A DNA stretch of 21,873 nucleotides from a virus (taxonomy: Duplodnaviria > Heunggongvirae > Uroviricota > Caudoviricetes), in the IMG/VR virus record IMGVR_UViG_2529293246_000003, positions 1 through 21,873 of that record. One strand, written 5' to 3'. Both the position numbers and the translations under genes were made by a program. Under the pieces are notes generated by a model, which worked only from the letters and a program-made list of their open reading frames with translations, searched no databases and was not told where the DNA came from. Below, in pieces: positions 2,352 to 21,873 of the stretch; the first letter of the stretch is position 1; each line of letters opens with the position of its first letter.

Positions 2352-2589
2352 GCTGCGGATCTAAGCGGTCATCGCAACGGTGAATCAGGTGATTGCCGTA
2401 TCGTTGTGTTGTTGCGATGAATTCATTTAAAACTATAGTTGTTTTATCGTCAACAACAAAAGTTTTTTTTGTTGGTTGTTTTAGATATAACTGGTTGTAT
2501 TTAAGATGGATTTATTTTGTGACTTGCATCGCATAGCGATAACTGAAGCGAGGTCGTGGTGGTTTTTTGAACGGTGTGTGATGAGGAGA
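2352..2589. promoter_or_regulatory. putative OL/pL-like operator-promoter region
   Basis: AT-rich 240-bp non-coding gap at the head of the minus-strand exo-bet-gam operon; contains several GGTTGT/ACAAC half-site-like motifs (2452-2456, 2473-2478, 2493-2498) resembling the inverted repeat between cI and cro. Confidence 0.35.
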
Positions 2590-2619
2590 AGGCAAAAGAA
2601 ACCCGGCATGGCAGCCGGG
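2590..2619 (-). terminator. factor-independent terminator closing the cI-ORF303 transcription unit
   Basis: Plus-strand CCCGGC(2602-2607)-ATGGCA-GCCGGG(2614-2619); on the minus strand the hairpin is followed by TTTCTTTTGCC, immediately after the ORF303 stop codon (2627-2629). Confidence 0.5.
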
Positions 2620-2626
2620 ATGAGAA

Positions 2627-3538
2627 TTAACGAGCCTTAGGGAGATTTGGGCGCTGCAAATTTTCTAAAACTTCAATAGCCTTAGTATTTTCAATTACTT
2701 TCTGCTGAACTTTATCAGCAAGATAATCTTTGAAACCCTTTGGAATGTATTCTTCTCTTAGCCATCTGCGAAATTCACCTAAAGCCTCTTCCGGATAAAT
2801 ATTGGCAGGAACTTTTCCTGCTTTACTTTGAGGAAACCAATCTGGATATTCATGTGGATATTTTTTCACATCGCCATATTTTTCACTAAGATTGTTTTTC
2901 TTCCAGTGGATTGCCCATCGTCCACCCACACTAATATCAGGTACTGTTTTTGGGCCAAGCTCAAATCCTGCATTGATAAGTGGAACTGTGATATCGACCA
3001 TCTCTCTAAAAACACTGAAGAAACCTGCAGGAATTTTGTCATTAAGCAATATTCGCTCTTGAAAACATTTCCAGGCGCCACTAATTGGATTTCTCGGGTC
3101 AATACCTACACTTTTGTATATATAGTCTCGAAGTGTTTGACGTGCTAATAGGCGGTAATTTTTCCTGGCTATAGTGCTATCAACCTGTGTGGCATCGAAA
3201 GCATAATATTCAAGAATTGCCATGCATACGGCATCTGGATAGGCATGTGTATCACCAAATGCGCCTCCGCCGACAACGGAATATAATTGATCACCTTTAA
3301 AACCATTCTCTGAAAGAAGCTCCGCAATTCTCCTTCCTCTGGGTTTATTCTTTTCTATTGACCAGTTGGTGGTGAGAGGTAAAAGTGTGGTGTGATCGAC
3401 CCCACATAACCTAGATAATCCACGGAGACTCAAAAATGGAGTTCCATCATTGAGAACACCCATTTGTACACCGTTTACTTCAACTTCTTTTACAGGAAAT
3501 AAAGACATTTCTTGTTGGTGGGCGGACTGATGGCTCAT
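2627..3538 (-). CDS. hypothetical protein of unknown function, co-directional with and directly downstream of cI (rexAB-equivalent slot)
   Basis: 303-aa ORF with ATG start and no competing ORF; 71-bp gap to the cI stop with no hairpin; markedly AT-rich compared with flanking genes. No motif assignable by eye; the N-terminal stretch VNGVQMGVLNDGTPFLSLRGLSRLCGV is only faintly reminiscent of KilA-N/Bro-N-type domains. Confidence 0.8.
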   Translation of the reverse strand: MSHQSAHQQEMSLFPVKEVEVNGVQMGVLNDGTPFLSLRGLSRLCGVDHTTLLPLTTNWSIEKNKPRGRRIAELLSENGFKGDQLYSVVGGGAFGDTHAYPDAVCMAILEYYAFDATQVDSTIARKNYRLLARQTLRDYIYKSVGIDPRNPISGAWKCFQERILLNDKIPAGFFSVFREMVDITVPLINAGFELGPKTVPDISVGGRWAIHWKKNNLSEKYGDVKKYPHEYPDWFPQSKAGKVPANIYPEEALGEFRRWLREEYIPKGFKDYLADKVQQKVIENTKAIEVLENLQRPNLPKAR

Positions 3539-3609
3539 GACATTATCTCTTTGATTTTTATTTATTTTAACTGGTGGTTGTTTGTAGGTAAGTCTATCTT
3601 GTGTTTTAG

Positions 3610-4299
3610 CTAACCATGCTTCCTATATGTTTGCGGCATGCTCCCAATAACTTTCCCGAAGATAAACACCCGGTTCATCTCGTCTTTCTCGATCGGGTCC
3701 CACGGTGAGTAGCTCTTGTTATCAGAGATAACCAGCAGCTTATCCTTCATCATTTGCAGGCGCTTTACATGGGCGGTGTCGTCGTACAGAAACGCATAGA
3801 TGCCATCACCGTCGAAAGATTTAACCGTGATATCAACGAACAGCAGATCACCTGGTTCGATCGTTCCTGACATGCTGTCACCGCGTACGTTAATGATGCG
3901 GATATTTTCTGCCTTCCTACCATCGAACATGTGACGAGCATCGTCAAACGAGTACTCAACCGAGCGTAGAACTTCTACAAACTCACGGTTGATGACTCCC
4001 GGCCCGGCACTCACTTCTATATCAAGAACGTCAATCTTAAAGTATTTGGAATGGCTGACAGTTGATGGTATTGGTTGCACTGTACTGTCTGACATATTTC
4101 CAACGCCAGAAGATAACCATTCTGCGCGCACACCCAAAGCGTTCGCGATCTCCACGATTTTAGTTGTTTGGTTAGCTTTCCCTGTTTCGATTTTCTGAAT
4201 AGCAGCTTGGCTAACCCCGACCAAATCCCCAAGCGCCTTTTGTGTAAGGCCTCGCGCTAATCTGGCTTCTTTAAGTCTTTCTGAGAGTGTTGTTTTCAT
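3610..4299 (-). CDS. cI: CI-type prophage repressor (N-terminal HTH, C-terminal LexA/S24 autopeptidase domain)
   Basis: HTH segment LTQKALGDLVGVSQAAIQKIETGK; S24 catalytic Ser in RGDSMSGTIEPGDLL and Lys in HVKRL. Start placed at the internal ATG 4299 (MKTTLSERLKEARL..., 229 aa) because the track's ATG at 4365 runs into the cro promoter; no Shine-Dalgarno is present, consistent with a leaderless PRM-type transcript. Confidence 0.9.
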   Translation of the reverse strand: MKTTLSERLKEARLARGLTQKALGDLVGVSQAAIQKIETGKANQTTKIVEIANALGVRAEWLSSGVGNMSDSTVQPIPSTVSHSKYFKIDVLDIEVSAGPGVINREFVEVLRSVEYSFDDARHMFDGRKAENIRIINVRGDSMSGTIEPGDLLFVDITVKSFDGDGIYAFLYDDTAHVKRLQMMKDKLLVISDNKSYSPWDPIEKDEMNRVFIFGKVIGSMPQTYRKHG

Positions 4300-4403
4300 A
4301 GTCCAAATGTACAACCAAGGTTTTATTCTATCAAACGAAAATGGTTGTTGACTAAAAACAACCATAGTTTTAATCTTGATTCGAATTAACCACGGAGGTT
4401 GTT
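4300..4403. promoter_or_regulatory. OR-like divergent control region (PR/PRM and operators)
   Basis: Inverted repeat ATGGTTGTT(4341-4349)-N7-AACAACCAT(4357-4365); plus-strand -35 TTGACT (4348-4353), 17-bp spacer, -10 TAATCT (4371-4376); GGAGG (4393-4397) ahead of the cro ATG at 4404. Confidence 0.55.
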
Positions 4404-4703: not shown

Positions 4704-5243
4704 ATGCAACCACTTACATACCAACAGACTAGCGGATTTAGCCCGACTGCGGTGATAAATCGTTCTCAAACAAAACAGGTGCCAGGCCACGAAAAAATCC
4801 GTGATGCCGTCCGCGCCTGGTCGGCTGCAGATAATCAGGATGTTGTTGCCGCACTCATTGTGAATGAGTATCGGGAGCAGGGCGGCGGCACCATCGATTT
4901 CCCTGATGATGTCAGCCGTGCACGCCAGAAGCTGTTCCGCTTCCTCGATAACAAATTCGATTCTGAAAAATACCGAAATAACGTGCGTGAACTGACCCCG
5001 GCAATTCTGGCGGTACTACCGCTGGAATATCGCGGTTACCTGGTTGAGCAGGATAGCTTCATGACTCGGTTGGCTGAAATGGAAAAGGAACTCAGTGAGG
5101 CAAAACAGGCTGTCATTCTCAACGCACCACGCCACCAGAAACTGAAGGAGATGAGTGAAGGTATTGTGTCGATGTTTCGTGTGGACCCGGATCTGGCTGG
5201 TCCATTGATGGCGATGGTTACCACCATGTTGGGGGCAATATGA
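4704..5243 (+). CDS. YdaT-family protein (CII-like regulator slot)
   Basis: 179-aa ORF between cro and O, AAGGAG Shine-Dalgarno; the central region (EYREQGGG...LTPAILAVLPLEYRGYL) resembles the Rac prophage YdaT family as I recall it. Confidence 0.65.
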   Translation: MQPLTYQQTSGFSPTAVINRSQTKQVPGHEKIRDAVRAWSAADNQDVVAALIVNEYREQGGGTIDFPDDVSRARQKLFRFLDNKFDSEKYRNNVRELTPAILAVLPLEYRGYLVEQDSFMTRLAEMEKELSEAKQAVILNAPRHQKLKEMSEGIVSMFRVDPDLAGPLMAMVTTMLGAI

Positions 5244-6259: not shown

Positions 6260-6957
6260 AAAACATCGCCGCACAGATGGTTAACTTTGACCGTGAGCAG
6301 ATGTGCCGGATCGCCAATAACATGCCGGAACAGTACGACGAAAAGCCGCAGGTACAGCAGGTAGCGCAGATCATCAACGGTGTATTCAGCCAGTTGCTGG
6401 CAACTTTCCCTGCGAGCCTGGCTAACCGTGACCAGAACGAACTGAACGAAATTCGCCGCCAGTGGGTTCTGGCTTTCCGGGAAAACGGGATCACCACAAT
6501 GGAACAGGTTAACGCTGGAATGCGCGTAGCCCGTCGGCAGAATCGACCATTCCTGCCATCACCCGGGCAGTTTGTCGCCTGGTGCCGGGAAGAAGCATCC
6601 GTTACCGCCGGGCTGCCAAACGCCAGCGAGCTGGTTGATATGGTTTACGAGTATTGCCGGAAGCGCGGGCTGTATCCGGATGCAGAGTCTTATCCGTGGA
6701 AATCAAACGCGCACTACTGGCTGGTTACCAACCTGTATCAGAACATGCGGGCCAATGCGTTGACTGACTCGGAATTACGGCGCAAGGCTGCCGATGAACT
6801 TGCCCATATGACTGCGAGAATTAACCGTGGTGAGGCTATACCTGAACCAGTAAAACAACTTCCTGTCATGGGCGGTAGACCTCTAAATCGTGCACAGGCT
6901 CTGGCGAAGATTGCAGAAATCAAAGCTAAGTTCGGACTGAAAGGAGCCAGTGTATGA
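6256..6957 (+). CDS. P: replication protein P (DnaB helicase loader)
   Basis: 233-aa ORF, recognisably lambda P nearly residue for residue (MKNIAAQMVNFDREQM...); ATGA overlap with the O stop. Confidence 0.95.
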   Translation: MKNIAAQMVNFDREQMCRIANNMPEQYDEKPQVQQVAQIINGVFSQLLATFPASLANRDQNELNEIRRQWVLAFRENGITTMEQVNAGMRVARRQNRPFLPSPGQFVAWCREEASVTAGLPNASELVDMVYEYCRKRGLYPDAESYPWKSNAHYWLVTNLYQNMRANALTDSELRRKAADELAHMTARINRGEAIPEPVKQLPVMGGRPLNRAQALAKIAEIKAKFGLKGASV

Positions 6958-7247
6958 CGGGAAAAGAAGCAATTATTCATTACCTGGGGACGCATAAGAG
7001 CTTCTGTGCGCAGGACGTTGCTGCGGTAACAGGCGCAACAGTAACCAGCATAAATCAGGCTGCGGCTAAAATGGCGCGGACAGGAATCTTAGTTATTGAT
7101 GGTAAGGTCTGGCGAACGGTGTATTACCGGTTCGCTACCAGGGAAGAACGGGAAGGAAAGGTGAGCACGAATCTGATTTTCAAGGAGTGTCGCCAGAGTG
7201 CCGCGATGAAGCGGGTGTTGGCATTTTATCGCGGCAATTTTCAATAG
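6954..7247 (+). CDS. ren: Ren protein
   Basis: 97-aa ORF recognisably lambda Ren (MTGKEAIIHYLGTH...); overlaps the P stop. Confidence 0.9.
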   Translation: MTGKEAIIHYLGTHKSFCAQDVAAVTGATVTSINQAAAKMARTGILVIDGKVWRTVYYRFATREEREGKVSTNLIFKECRQSAAMKRVLAFYRGNFQ

Positions 7248-7284
7248 ACTATGTACATAAAAATATCATTTTTTTAATACATGT

Positions 7285-7491
7285 CTAATTATTGGACGAA
7301 ATTGGTTTTTGCTTTGGTTTAGTTAGCCTAGCAATCAAGCCAGAGGCAATAATGATGATCCAAGCAATTTGATGCAATGCTACTCCAATATAAGAACCTT
7401 TATAGATAATAAAGGCATAGATCGCTAGAAACGAAATAAATATCCATAACGAAAGTTGATAAATTTTGGCGCGCATATTTAATCCAATCAA
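7285..7491 (-). CDS. putative small membrane protein (two predicted TM helices)
   Basis: 68-aa ORF (TTG start at 7491, or ATG at 7476 giving 63 aa); very hydrophobic and AT-rich; no convincing Shine-Dalgarno, so it is uncertain. Confidence 0.3.
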   Translation of the reverse strand: MIGLNMRAKIYQLSLWIFISFLAIYAFIIYKGSYIGVALHQIAWIIIIASGLIARLTKPKQKPISSNN

Positions 7492-7732
7492 TCAGAAAGA
7501 CGAGTAATCATAGAGGTACTATCACCCGGGTAACTATTGCTATTATGAACGGATAGGATAGAGGCTTCAATAACATATGCATCAAGTATGATGGAATATG
7601 TAGGTGAAAATGACTTGTGTCAAATTTGTGGAAATGAGTACCATGTTTCTCTGAAATTGATGTCGTTAATGGCTAGTGATAGTGAACTTTTTTACTTTAT
7701 AATTCCTTTGGTTATAACAATAAGGTAAATTT

Positions 7733-8293
7733 ATGAAGAAGATAATATTATTAGCCATGATTATTGGTTCTTTAACAGGTTGCGCTAGTGTGCCACCATT
7801 GAATTTTTCAACACCTAACGTGGGAGTTAGCCAGAAAAAAATAGATGCTGAAATTAAGTCATTAACGGTATCACTTGCTCGTCCAGATGAGCAGAAAGGG
7901 GATATCACTGCTGGTATGGAGGCTATAACTCCAATTTGGCGTGAATCTTTGCAGGAAGCACTCGACCGAATGACTATTTTTCGTGATAGTTCACCAAATA
8001 CGGTTAGCTTAAATGTTAAAGTGTTGGCTCTTGACGTTCCTGCTTTTGGTGTTTCAATGACAACTAAAGCAATTGCAAGGTATGAAATAATCAACCGTGC
8101 GAATGGTGATATTATATATACGCAGGATATTGAGTCTACCGGTACTGTTCCAGCCAGTTACGCATTCTACGGTATTGTTCGAGCACGCGAATCTGTTAAT
8201 CGCGCGGTGCAAAACAACATAACGCAGTTCTTGCAAGCATTAGAAAGTGTTGATCTTTCTCGTCCAATGTTTCCTGTTAGGGTAGCTAAATGA
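7733..8293 (+). CDS. putative lipoprotein, unknown family
   Basis: 186-aa ORF with signal peptide and lipobox (MKKIILLAMIIGSLTG-C); AAGG Shine-Dalgarno; its stop overlaps the next gene's start; AT-rich. Confidence 0.75.
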   Translation: MKKIILLAMIIGSLTGCASVPPLNFSTPNVGVSQKKIDAEIKSLTVSLARPDEQKGDITAGMEAITPIWRESLQEALDRMTIFRDSSPNTVSLNVKVLALDVPAFGVSMTTKAIARYEIINRANGDIIYTQDIESTGTVPASYAFYGIVRARESVNRAVQNNITQFLQALESVDLSRPMFPVRVAK

Positions 8294-8742
8294 AGCGATT
8301 ATTCGTAATTGCTCCACTCTTAGTGTTGGTTGGATGCGCACAAAATATATCGCCAAATAGTTATTCTGTTGGCTCTGTGGGCATGGTTAATCGAACTATC
8401 GCTGGTACAGTTATTAGTGCTAGGGGGGTTGATATCAGTGGGACTTCCGCGTTAGGCGGGACTGCTGGGGCTGCCGTGGGGGCAACCGCTGGTTCTGCGC
8501 TTGGTGGGGGAGTTCGTTCTAATATCGTTGGTGCCGTTGGTGGTGCAGTCATTGGTGGTATTGCCGGGGCAGCAATCGAATCTTCAGCAACAAAACAAAC
8601 AGGCATGGAATATGTTGTCGAAACTGAGAATGGGAATTTAATGACCATTGTTCAAGGCAAAGATCCGTTATTTACTCAAGGAAGTAAGGTCCTTGTTTTA
8701 TACGGAAACCCTTCTCGCATAATAACAGACCCGCGTCACTAA
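8290..8742 (+). CDS. glycine-zipper outer-membrane lipoprotein (SlyB/Pcp-like)
   Basis: 150-aa ORF with lipobox (LVLVG-C) and a GxxxG-rich glycine-zipper segment (GTAGAAVGATAGSALGGGV...GAVGGAVIGGIAGAAIE), overall resembling the E. coli SlyB/Pcp architecture from memory. Confidence 0.8.
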   Translation: MKRLFVIAPLLVLVGCAQNISPNSYSVGSVGMVNRTIAGTVISARGVDISGTSALGGTAGAAVGATAGSALGGGVRSNIVGAVGGAVIGGIAGAAIESSATKQTGMEYVVETENGNLMTIVQGKDPLFTQGSKVLVLYGNPSRIITDPRH

Positions 8743-8788
8743 CATACCTTTTGATTTTGTAAAATCAATTCGTAATAATAAAGTCATC

Positions 8789-9318: not shown

Positions 9319-9927
9319 ATGACTACTCAATTAGCATTCCACAAAACGACGTTTACCCCGATTTGCCACAATAACAGAATTTGGCTTACTGCCACTGAAG
9401 TTGGTTTAGCACTGGAATATGCGGACGATAAAGCAGTTCAGCGCATTTACTCTCGGCACTCAGATGAATTCACAGATATGATGACAAGGGTGGTCAAAGT
9501 GACCACCCCTCGTGGAATGCAGGAGTCTCGAGTATTTAGCCTTCGCGGAGCCCATTTGATCGCCATGTTTGCTCGTACTCCTGTGGCCAAAGAATTCCGC
9601 CGCTGGGTTCTGGATATTCTCGATCGAGAAGTTCAACAATCCCCAATCACAAAACAATTCACTGATAACGAACTTTGCACACTCGCCTGGTTATGGCGAG
9701 CAAGTGATACGATGTTAACCGCCTGCCAGAACGTTACGCCCCTTCTTCAGGTCGCAGAGCATCGCGAAGCAGGTAGATTCACTTCAATCGAACAAGAATA
9801 TCCTCGGATACTCAACAGGGCGCGAGAAATCCTTGCCAGAGAAACGGCGCATGTAAAATTCCAACCGTGGCAGGATGATAAGTGGAGTCGTGTGTTACCA
9901 TATTTCCGTCAGAATCTGTTGCAATAA
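9319..9927 (+). CDS. Bro-N domain phage antirepressor-like protein
   Basis: 202-aa ORF with GAGGTGA Shine-Dalgarno; the N-terminal 100 aa fit the Bro-N/AntA pattern (TFTPICHNNRIWLTATEVGLALEY...SLRGAHLIAMFARTPVAKEFRRWVLDIL). Confidence 0.8.
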   Translation: MTTQLAFHKTTFTPICHNNRIWLTATEVGLALEYADDKAVQRIYSRHSDEFTDMMTRVVKVTTPRGMQESRVFSLRGAHLIAMFARTPVAKEFRRWVLDILDREVQQSPITKQFTDNELCTLAWLWRASDTMLTACQNVTPLLQVAEHREAGRFTSIEQEYPRILNRAREILARETAHVKFQPWQDDKWSRVLPYFRQNLLQ

Positions 9928-19392: not shown

Positions 19393-19905
19393 ATGGCGGT
19401 TGATATTAAAGATGTCGAACAGGTCGCGCAGGAGCTGCAGCAGAAGTTTGACGACTTCAAAGCAAAGAACGACAAGCGCGTGGATGCGATTGAGCAGGAA
19501 AAAGGCAAGCTTGCCGGGCAGGTGGAAACCCTGAACGGGAAACTCAGCGAGCTGGAAAATCTCAAAAGCGACCTTGAAAAAGAGCTGCTTGAGCTGAAAC
19601 GTCCGGCAGGTGGAGCGCAAAATAAACTGGCCACCGAGCATAAAGAGGCGTTTGTGGGCTTCCTGCGTAAAGGCCGTGAAGACGGTCTGCGCGATCTGGA
19701 GCGTAAGGCATTGCAGGTGGGTACCGATGAAGACGGTGGCTACGCCGTGCCGGAAGAACTGGATCGCAACATTCTTAACCTGCTGAAAGATGAAGTGGTG
19801 ATGCGTCAGGAAGCCACGGTGATCACCGTTGGCGGTTCCGACTACAAAAAACTGGTGAATCTGGGCGGTACGGCTTCCGGATGGGTGGGGGAAGCAATCC
19901 AGTAA
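19393..19905 (+). pseudogene. major capsid protein, N-terminal fragment only (delta-domain coiled coil plus start of the mature domain)
   Basis: 170-aa ORF; residues 1-70 are coiled-coil-like, as in an HK97-type delta domain; the ORF stops at 19905 and the downstream sequence is unrelated (inverted tail-fibre remnant), whereas HK97-fold capsid proteins are typically over 300 aa. Confidence 0.7.
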
Positions 19906-20237
19906 GCAAAAGGATTTATTCCTTGCTCAGTCACAGATGACATCAGGGAAAATTGCGATGGTGAAACAGGTAATGCTGCAAAACTAACCATTGTTGACAC
20001 ACCTGACCGTGCATTATCGTACGATGCAACAACACAATAATTGGTATTGCTGAAAGATATCGGCAGGGTGATATTTACAGGTGAGCCTAATGGCCCTGAT
20101 GCTGATATTCCCATTTGAATGATGGTTCCATCAGGCAATTTTCTCCAGCGATTAGAACTCGGATTTCTTTTCCAGGCTGACATATCCGGTATCTGATTTT
20201 CTCCTGTACCCACATCCCTTTTCGCCGCTTCTCCCAA
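19906..20237 (-). pseudogene. tail-fibre variable C-terminal segment remnant (Sv'/StfE-like), promoterless and abutting the crossover site
   Basis: Minus-strand ORF (19842-20237 in the track) begins inside the gix/pix-like site next to pin and reads away from it; its far end runs into the truncated capsid gene. Confidence 0.45.
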
Positions 20238-20254
20238 ACCAACCTTTTAGAAAA
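20229..20254. other. gix/pix/hix-like 26-bp invertase crossover site
   Basis: TTCTCCCAAACCAACCTTTTAGAAAA; imperfect dyad with the AAACC...TTTT core seen in gix/hix sites as I recall them; 55 bp upstream of the pin start. I found no second, inverted copy in the window. Confidence 0.55.
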
Positions 20255-20308
20255 TGCAGTTATTCGGCTCAGATGGCATGATCCCGGATTTTTACAGGGT
20301 TATTTCTC

Positions 20309-20863
20309 ATGCTTATTGGCTATGTACGTGTGTCAACAAATGACCAGAACACAGATCTACAACGTAATGCGCTGAACTGTGCAGGATGCGAGCTGATTTT
20401 TGAAGACAAGATAAGCGGTACAAAGTCCGAAAGGCCGGGACTGAAAAAACTGCTCAGGACATTATCGGCAGGTGACACTCTGGTTGTCTGGAAACTGGAT
20501 CGGCTGGGGCGCAGTATGCGGCATCTGGTCATTCTGGTTGAGGAGTTGCGCGAACGTGGCGTTAATTTTCGCAGCCTGACGGATGCTATTGATACCAGTA
20601 CCCCAATGGGGCGCTTTTTCTTTCATGTGATGGGGGCCCTGGCTGAAATGGAACGAGAACTGATTGTTGAACGAACAAAAGCTGGACTGGAAGCTGCTCG
20701 CGCACAGGGACGAATTGGTGGACGTCGTCCCAAACTTACACCAGAACAATGGGCGCAGGCCGGACGATTAATTGCAGCAGGAATTCCTCGCCAGAAGGTA
20801 GCGATCATCTATGATGTTGGTGTATCGACACTGTATAAGAAGTTTCCGGCCGGAGATAAATGA
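20309..20863 (+). CDS. pin: serine-recombinase DNA invertase (Pin/Gin/Hin family)
   Basis: 184-aa ORF, recognisably near-identical to E. coli e14 Pin (MLIGYVRVSTNDQNTDLQRNAL...); catalytic Ser in YVRVSTNDQ. Confidence 0.95.
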   Translation: MLIGYVRVSTNDQNTDLQRNALNCAGCELIFEDKISGTKSERPGLKKLLRTLSAGDTLVVWKLDRLGRSMRHLVILVEELRERGVNFRSLTDAIDTSTPMGRFFFHVMGALAEMERELIVERTKAGLEAARAQGRIGGRRPKLTPEQWAQAGRLIAAGIPRQKVAIIYDVGVSTLYKKFPAGDK

Positions 20864-20920
20864 AACCGTAGCACGTCGTATGCAAGATCGTGCTGCGGTT
20901 TATGCTTACCACTTGAAGAT

Positions 20921-21790
<870 letters not shown>

Positions 21791-21873
21791 CTAACCCTTT
21801 GAATTTACATAGCGCAAAAAGATACCTTTCCTCATAATGTGAGCTAATTTTATGTTTCGTTTGATGATCGGGT

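Follow-up and report, generated by a model that had tools for sequence, protein, structure and literature searches.

A new BstA allele in an Escherichia coli lambdoid prophage and direct repeats around the start codon of bstA genes

We found that the 303-aa gene located directly downstream of the cI-type repressor gene in an Escherichia coli lambdoid prophage integrated beside ybhC (IMG/VR record IMGVR_UViG_2529293246_000003; its whole 21,873-bp sequence is referred to below as the window) is almost certainly a BstA-family gene, as judged from full-length profile matches and from its identity to the prototype of Salmonella phage BTP1. The system is known and published, and the gene adds a new allele to it. 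What the analysis contributes is a geometry of direct repeats that recurs around the start codon of bstA genes across the family, and the finding of a natural domain-swap relative of the BTP1 prototype; the BstA system itself was already known.

The product matched PHROG 6287 (“BstA abortive infection system, replication inhibitor”) over residues 2–301 of 303 (E 7.5e-141) and the PADLOC BstA profile over residues 5–297 (E 7e-122), and tblastn of phage genomes gave 216 identical positions out of 299 (72%) with BstA (bstA/st313-td) of BTP1. In the alignment, the invariant residues of the BstA family were kept in the window protein. The precomputed Pfam family PF26567 was found on all of the at least 120 homologues listed, one of which is named “BstA-like C-terminal domain-containing protein”. 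Public records label the 303-aa product “hypothetical protein”, and a search of the local Pfam-A copy returned only a spurious DHQ_synthase hit (E 0.067), that of NCBIfam no match, and a PDB sequence search nothing below E 0.6, no BstA structure having been solved. These database labels and empty searches are what favors an undescribed defense or conversion function, as proposed in the initial annotation, which could not assign the gene to any family by eye. However, this reading is refuted by the PHROG and PADLOC matches and by the 72% identity to a characterized protein, and we regard its probability as negligible. The functional guess was right in kind, because BstA is a lysogen-expressed abortive infection defense family: the gene indeed belongs to a prophage-encoded defense family by homology, and it is the novelty that did not hold, the system having been described by Owen et al. 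in 2021. An identical protein is present on 221 contigs across Enterobacteriaceae, and these entries together with the window gene should be labeled BstA instead of “hypothetical protein”. Such a label marks the prophage as an abortive infection carrier, which is relevant to host range in phage therapy.

In prophage BTP1, bstA is located downstream of cI and is highly expressed in lysogens, and both the order of cI, bstA and a Rho-independent terminator and the parallel with rexAB have already been described (Owen et al. 2021, PMC8585504). BstA alone provides abortive infection defense against a large number of phages, among them lambda, phi80, P1 and T7 in E. coli; the protein colocalizes with phage DNA and stops phage DNA replication (PMC8585504). 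The BTP1 prophage evades its own BstA via aba (anti-BstA), a 63-bp DNA element which is made up of the 29 bp preceding bstA and the first 34 bp of the gene and which has direct CCCGCC repeats at its termini; one G-to-T change in either repeat kills its function (PMC8585504). The divergent BstA-Ec and BstA-Kp protect similarly, each with its own cognate aba (PMC8585504). By analogy with this system, we consider it very probable that the window gene is co-expressed with cI in the lysogen, causes abortive infection via a replication block and is made harmless to its own prophage by an element at positions 3516–3578. In the lysogen, bstA would be transcribed with cI from a PRM-like promoter, with the transcript ending at the terminator at 2619–2592, as suggested by the locus anatomy and by BTP1. 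When a heterologous phage infects, BstA would go to the replicating phage DNA and block its replication, and the infected cell would die without progeny release, as observed for BstA-BTP1, -Ec and -Kp (PMC8585504) and as expected here from the 72% identity. Silencing of BstA by aba in its own prophage has its precedent in BTP1 and would be mediated here by a positionally homologous repeat pair. A different possibility is that a BstA homologue acts mainly in lysogenic conversion or virulence modulation rather than in phage defense. The BTP1 gene was first named st313-td, the name still used in the BTP1 record, and was linked to Salmonella virulence phenotypes, and earlier work tying it to virulence or anti-virulence is cited by Owen et al. 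(PMC8585504). We consider this possibility very unlikely, as the protein itself conferred defense when placed in a heterologous host, and three divergent homologues did so as well (PMC8585504); no mechanism has been proposed for the virulence role, and virulence and defense are not mutually exclusive.

Anatomy of the immunity region

On the minus strand, the immunity region reads in the order OR-like palindrome, cI, a 71-bp spacer, bstA, terminator and OL-like palindrome, followed by kil, gam, bet and exo (Table 1). The initial annotation had placed the 303-aa gene 71 bp downstream of cI on the same strand without an intervening hairpin, in the slot that lambda fills with rexAB, had noted a terminator immediately behind it and ahead of an OL-like region, and had described the gene as more AT-rich than the Red genes. 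All of these structural points were borne out. The cI stop codon occupies 3612..3610 and the bstA ATG starts at 3538, leaving a gap of exactly 71 bp. A terminator scan of this gap found none, and the predicted RNA folding energy of 3500–3640 (-10 kcal/mol) was less stable than the shuffled mean (-13.9 kcal/mol; z = +1.47). GC content was about 0.40 in the gene and 0.38–0.42 over 2400–3800, compared with 0.51 for the Red genes (0.50–0.54 over exo/bet/gam). The extent of the gene was identical to that of a 912-nt RefSeq CDS in a genome which is 99.9% identical here, and its Shine-Dalgarno sequence was weak (AGAG, 8 nt 5′ of the ATG).

Table 1. Coordinates of features in and around the immunity region of the window.
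Feature	Position	Strand	Description
OL-like operator palindrome	2438..2457		GTTGTT-N8-AACAAC
Rho-independent terminator (Timm-like), ending the immunity transcript	2592..2619	minus	CCCGGC-6-GCCGGG at 2619..2602, then TTTCTTTTGC to 2592
bstA CDS	2627..3538	minus	303 aa, ATG start, from ORF list
C-terminal BstA domain	2630..3094	minus	residues ~149–303
N-terminal KilA-N/APSES-like putative DNA-binding domain	3095..3496	minus	residues ~15–148, from model
Candidate cognate aba (anti-BstA)	3516..3578	minus	63 bp, ACCACCAGTTAAAATAAATAAAAATCAAAGAGATAATGTCATGAGCCATCAGTCCGCCCACCA; positional equivalent of BTP1 aba
Right aba direct repeat (candidate)	3516..3521	minus	CCACCA, bstA codons 6–8
cI-bstA intergenic spacer	3539..3609	minus	71 bp, terminator-free
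Left aba direct repeat (candidate)	3572..3577	minus	CCACCA; overlaps ACAACCA copy 3575–3581
cI-type repressor, HTH_3 + Peptidase_S24	3610..4299	minus	229 aa; Pfam S24 E 1.2e-18, HTH_3 E 5.4e-13
PRM-like promoter candidate	4306..4334	minus	TTGATA-17-TACATT, consensus match only
OR-like operator palindrome	4341..4365		ATGGTTGTT-N7-AACAACCAT

The terminator begins 7 nt past the bstA stop codon, and its predicted folding energy (-16.9 kcal/mol, z = -3.1) was equalled by only 1 of 200 shuffled sequences. A similar terminator follows BTP1 bstA, and the equivalent site in phage CL707 is annotated as “Timm”. From this anatomy and the BTP1 precedent we infer that bstA is co-transcribed with cI in the lysogen. 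BTP1 has the same slot after cI on the same strand, with a cI-bstA spacer of 88 bp vs 71 bp in the window, and the annotation of CL707 shows a comparable layout of cI, bstA, terminator and OL. The phages themselves are different: the window phage is an E. coli lambda-type phage with exo/bet/gam and O/P and with no N seen beside OL, whereas BTP1 is a P22-like Lederbergvirus. An upstream same-strand ORF with a Peptidase_S24 domain was found in 21 of the 34 scanned (the window cI and 33 from the 39 other non-redundant bstA loci described below).

With lambda RexA/RexB, window BstA shares the slot between cI and OL and, presumably, both the logic of co-transcription with the repressor and the abortive infection outcome. 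In contrast, there is no sequence relationship between RexAB and BstA, the window slot is a single ORF rather than two genes, and the PADLOC families returned for it were BstA and a weak HTH model only, not Rex. RexAB is composed of a sensor and a membrane channel, whereas BstA is one soluble two-domain protein. RexAB collapses the membrane potential, and BstA blocks DNA replication (PMC8585504). Unlike RexAB, BstA also has a DNA-encoded self-immunity element.

The cI product is named “S24 family peptidase” in RefSeq (690 nt), and its true start is most likely at 4299, which gives 229 aa as in RefSeq, rather than at 4365, where the 251-aa ORF starts. The PRM-derived cI transcript of lambda is leaderless. 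With lambda and the annotation of CL707 as guides, the PRM-like candidate of the window, whose predicted start is at about the cI ATG, would also produce a leaderless transcript. The pattern GTTGT-N9/10-ACAAC occurred at just two sites in the 21.9-kb window, 2438–2457 and 4344–4362, which flank the immunity region (0.15 expected by chance). Promoter-like matches around the cI-bstA spacer were at chance level (5 found vs 5.0 expected). One of these, TTAAAA-17-GATAAT (3570..3542), was considered as bstA's own promoter within the 71-bp gap and rejected, because it ends 4 nt before the ATG and is too near to it. Besides, the 7-mer ACAACCA was present in 8 copies in the window vs 3.1 expected, and six of them were in the immunity region (2473–2479, 2492–2498, 3575–3581, 4311–4317, 4342–4348 and 4358–4364), at OL, at OR and over the left aba repeat. 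The left aba repeat was also considered as a cI operator and rejected; the ACAACCA copy in the cI-bstA spacer is a half-site at most, because the full palindrome was found only at OL and OR.

To the left of the OL-like operator, no N-type antiterminator gene was visible between it and kil (2351–2440). The listed 136-aa ORF (1941–2351) is really a 68-aa Kil homologue, with 207 nt in RefSeq and a PHROG 294 match over residues 60–136, and the cII position is taken by a YdaT-domain protein (4704–5243). With no N seen and YdaT at the cII position, the early-left region is Rac-like in regulation and lambda-like in its recombination genes.

Domain composition and candidate aba element

The predicted structure of window BstA has two domains, of which the N-terminal one is APSES/KilA-N-like; this is a fold resemblance with weak structural scores. 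In a comparison of the model with known structures, as suggested in the initial annotation, Foldseek of the whole model against PDB returned nothing below E 0.27 (TM ≤ 0.16), and the N-terminal domain alone resembled the KilA-N/APSES fold. The weak structural likeness was to KilA-N/APSES proteins such as yeast Mbp1 and Bqt4, to which the C-terminal domain is unrelated; Foldseek against PDB found no known fold relative of the C-terminal domain, and the Pfam KilA-N profile had no match in window BstA at E ≤ 1. The N-terminal fold could suggest a KilA-N-type regulator or anti-repressor of the phage's own lytic switch that is merely BstA-like; such domains occur in phage anti-repressors, and an Ant-like protein is also encoded in the window (9319–9927). 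We find this most improbable, given that BstA homology is full-length with an 89% identical C-terminal domain, and that an anti-repressor co-expressed with cI would oppose lysogeny.

The two domains have quite different relationships with the BTP1 prototype. The C-terminal domain (149–303) was 89% identical, whereas the N-terminal core (38–101) was only 34% identical, and the N-terminus of the window protein is 4 residues shorter. The window allele is a natural hybrid, with a BTP1-like C-terminal domain next to an N-terminal domain and a repeat that differ from those of BTP1. As the N-terminal cores have so little identity, neither target range nor aba specificity is simply transferable from BTP1. 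BstA-Ec (E. coli NCTC10963; CL707 locus type) and BstA-Kp (Klebsiella pneumoniae 52.145) belong to the same family as window BstA, which was 46% identical to the CL707 protein and 51% to that of Klebsiella phage RCIP0114. The tested E. coli homologue is far more distant from the window allele than BTP1 BstA is. The hybrid allele offers a ready-made tool for the question, left open by Owen et al. (PMC8585504), of which part of BstA reads aba.

At the position of BTP1 aba, the window has a 63-bp segment with 40 bp ahead of the bstA start codon and the initial 23 bp of the CDS, and this segment contains two CCACCA repeats. As in BTP1, these direct repeats flank the start codon, and their start-to-start spacing of 56 bp is the same as that of the BTP1 CCCGCC repeats. 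With the conserved Phe14 codon as anchor, the repeats of the window and BTP1 also share their register and align as ACCACCA / CCCACCA vs CCCGCCA / CCCGCCA, with A in both window copies at the position of BTP1's essential G; the repeats thus differ (CC(C/A)ACCA vs CCCGCCA) at the very base that is critical in BTP1. The window and BTP1 become similar at the DNA level only past the aba region, at TTATTTCCTGTAAAAGA, and the upstream segment and first codons differ. For the left repeat, the homologous sequence of relatives L005, L007 and L009 is TGACCACCAC, and its flanks in the window are unlike those of these closest relatives (AACCACCAG vs TGACCACCAC). For the window alone, a 6-nt repeat at the right place is moderately unlikely by chance, with an estimated probability of roughly 0.02–0.08. 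On the basis of sequence position and spacing, we infer that 3516–3578 is a candidate for the cognate self-immunity element of this bstA.

In addition, in two close relatives from IMG/VR contigs (L006 and L008; about 86% protein identity), the start codon was flanked by CCACC-type sequences about 65–67 bp apart. Their spacing differs from 56 bp because the N-terminal coding region is longer. As natural spacing variants, these loci could reveal how strictly a 56–57 bp rule applies.

Repeat geometry among bstA loci

We collected 80 bstA loci from viral contigs, together with those of BTP1, CL707 and Klebsiella phage RCIP0114. The non-redundant set comprised 40 loci that were <85% identical over the 180 bp surrounding the start codon. 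Of these 40 loci, 25 contained an exact direct repeat of 6 nt or more at a spacing of 55–57 bp, compared with 3.4 on average and at most 12 in shuffled sequences, a comparison in which shared ancestry is uncorrected. The spacing histogram had peaks at 56 bp (14 loci) and 57 bp (10 loci) above a background of mostly 0–4 loci per spacing. Two minor peaks, with 7 loci at 46 bp and 8 loci at 87 bp, seem to stem from one closely related group. Repeat sequence varied among lineages, with both copies changing in step: it was CCCGCCA, CCACCA, GCACCA, ACAGCA, GGGCAGCA, GGTCAGCA, CGGTCAA, TCACCA, TGGGCA, ATCCCT or TGGTCA, with others found as well. With loci anchored on the protein alignment, the match between a locus' own left and right copies averaged 5.3 nt vs 3.45 nt across loci, a value reached in 0 of 10,000 permutations.

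For example, the CL707 locus, whose upstream sequence matches the bstA-Ec cloning primer of Owen et al., contained two copies of ATCCCT 57 bp apart across the start codon, and phage RCIP0114 similarly had two copies of TGGTCA with the same 57-bp spacing; neither sequence is like that of the window. It is possible that the RCIP0114 TGGTCA serves as a proxy for the repeat of the BstA-Kp locus. Among the three loci tested by Owen et al., the repeat was derived directly for BTP1 only (CCCGCC), and in the literature searched an aba repeat has been described for BTP1 only; a search for post-2021 studies on the mechanism of BstA or aba brought up only surveys and citations.

The variation of the repeats was accompanied by variation of the N-terminal domain. 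Relatives sharing the CCACCA repeat (L005 and L007) had 78–83% identity to window BstA in the N-terminal core, with C-terminal identity unchanged. In the close subfamily, mean identity between members of one repeat type was 82% in the N-terminal core and 90% in the C-terminal domain, whereas between members of different repeat types it was 46% and 84%, respectively. This co-variation is consistent with an N-terminal domain that recognizes the repeats, but linkage during recombination could equally yield it, since aba adjoins the N-terminal coding region.

We tentatively propose, at slightly below even confidence, that aba is a two-part DNA site throughout the family, with repeats of 6–13 bp located 56–57 bp apart astride the start codon and read by the N-terminal domain; this proposal is drawn from sequence comparison. 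In this two-part form, aba may comprise at least 11 repeat types, and the CCACCA of the window allele would represent a fourth specificity type beside the three loci tested by Owen et al. If the proposal is true, repeat sequence and N-terminal domain would together form a readable “immunity-type code”, and cross-immunity between BstA prophages could be predictable from sequence. The 56–57 bp repeat geometry makes the question of how aba is read concrete and testable.

Cargo slot and prophage context

The best match over the immunity region was E. coli strain JS01 (99.9%). Of 5426 complete E. coli genomes, only 3 had the bstA cassette, and in prophages with an identical cI protein the slot was occupied by another gene, of 337 aa. 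The homology with these alternative-cargo prophages breaks at 3613/3614, just after the cI stop, and at 2619/2620, at the terminator; the terminator is common to E. coli prophages with another gene in the slot, and homology picks up again at 2619. As homology breaks at its two edges, the slot is an exchange point for cargo genes. A search of four libraries for the 337-aa cargo as a known defense gene gave no match.

The rarity of the allele among complete E. coli genomes, together with the weak Shine-Dalgarno sequence and with several pseudogenes elsewhere in the prophage of the closest E. coli genome that has it, would agree with an inactive remnant, i.e., a sequence-intact bstA that is unexpressed or non-functional in a decaying prophage. 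We consider a remnant very unlikely: the ORF is intact, the identical protein occurs on the 221 contigs mentioned above, the invariant residues are kept, and terminator, repeats and cI are all intact.

Besides bstA, the window encodes the Ant-like anti-repressor mentioned above (PHROG 245, E 2.8e-56) and a Ren-like exclusion protein (6954–7247; PHROG 142, E 1.2e-42), so the phage has both regulatory and exclusion accessories in addition to BstA. Between ren and the nin region, a low-GC island (0.33–0.40) at 7250–8750 looks like another cargo insertion. It contains a 186-aa ORF with a lipoprotein-like signal (MKKIILLAMIIGSLTGC; PHROG 12521), a 150-aa ORF (PHROG 13877) and, on the opposite strand, a 68-aa hydrophobic ORF; JS01, the closest E. 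coli genome with the bstA allele, has different genes at this position. At the far end of the window, similarity to related E. coli prophages ends at about 19,890, and the lower-GC DNA beyond this point (19890–21873) includes a DNA invertase gene (20309–20863; PHROG 125) and, on the minus strand, a gene for a 274-aa protein (20921–21745; PHROG 5356).
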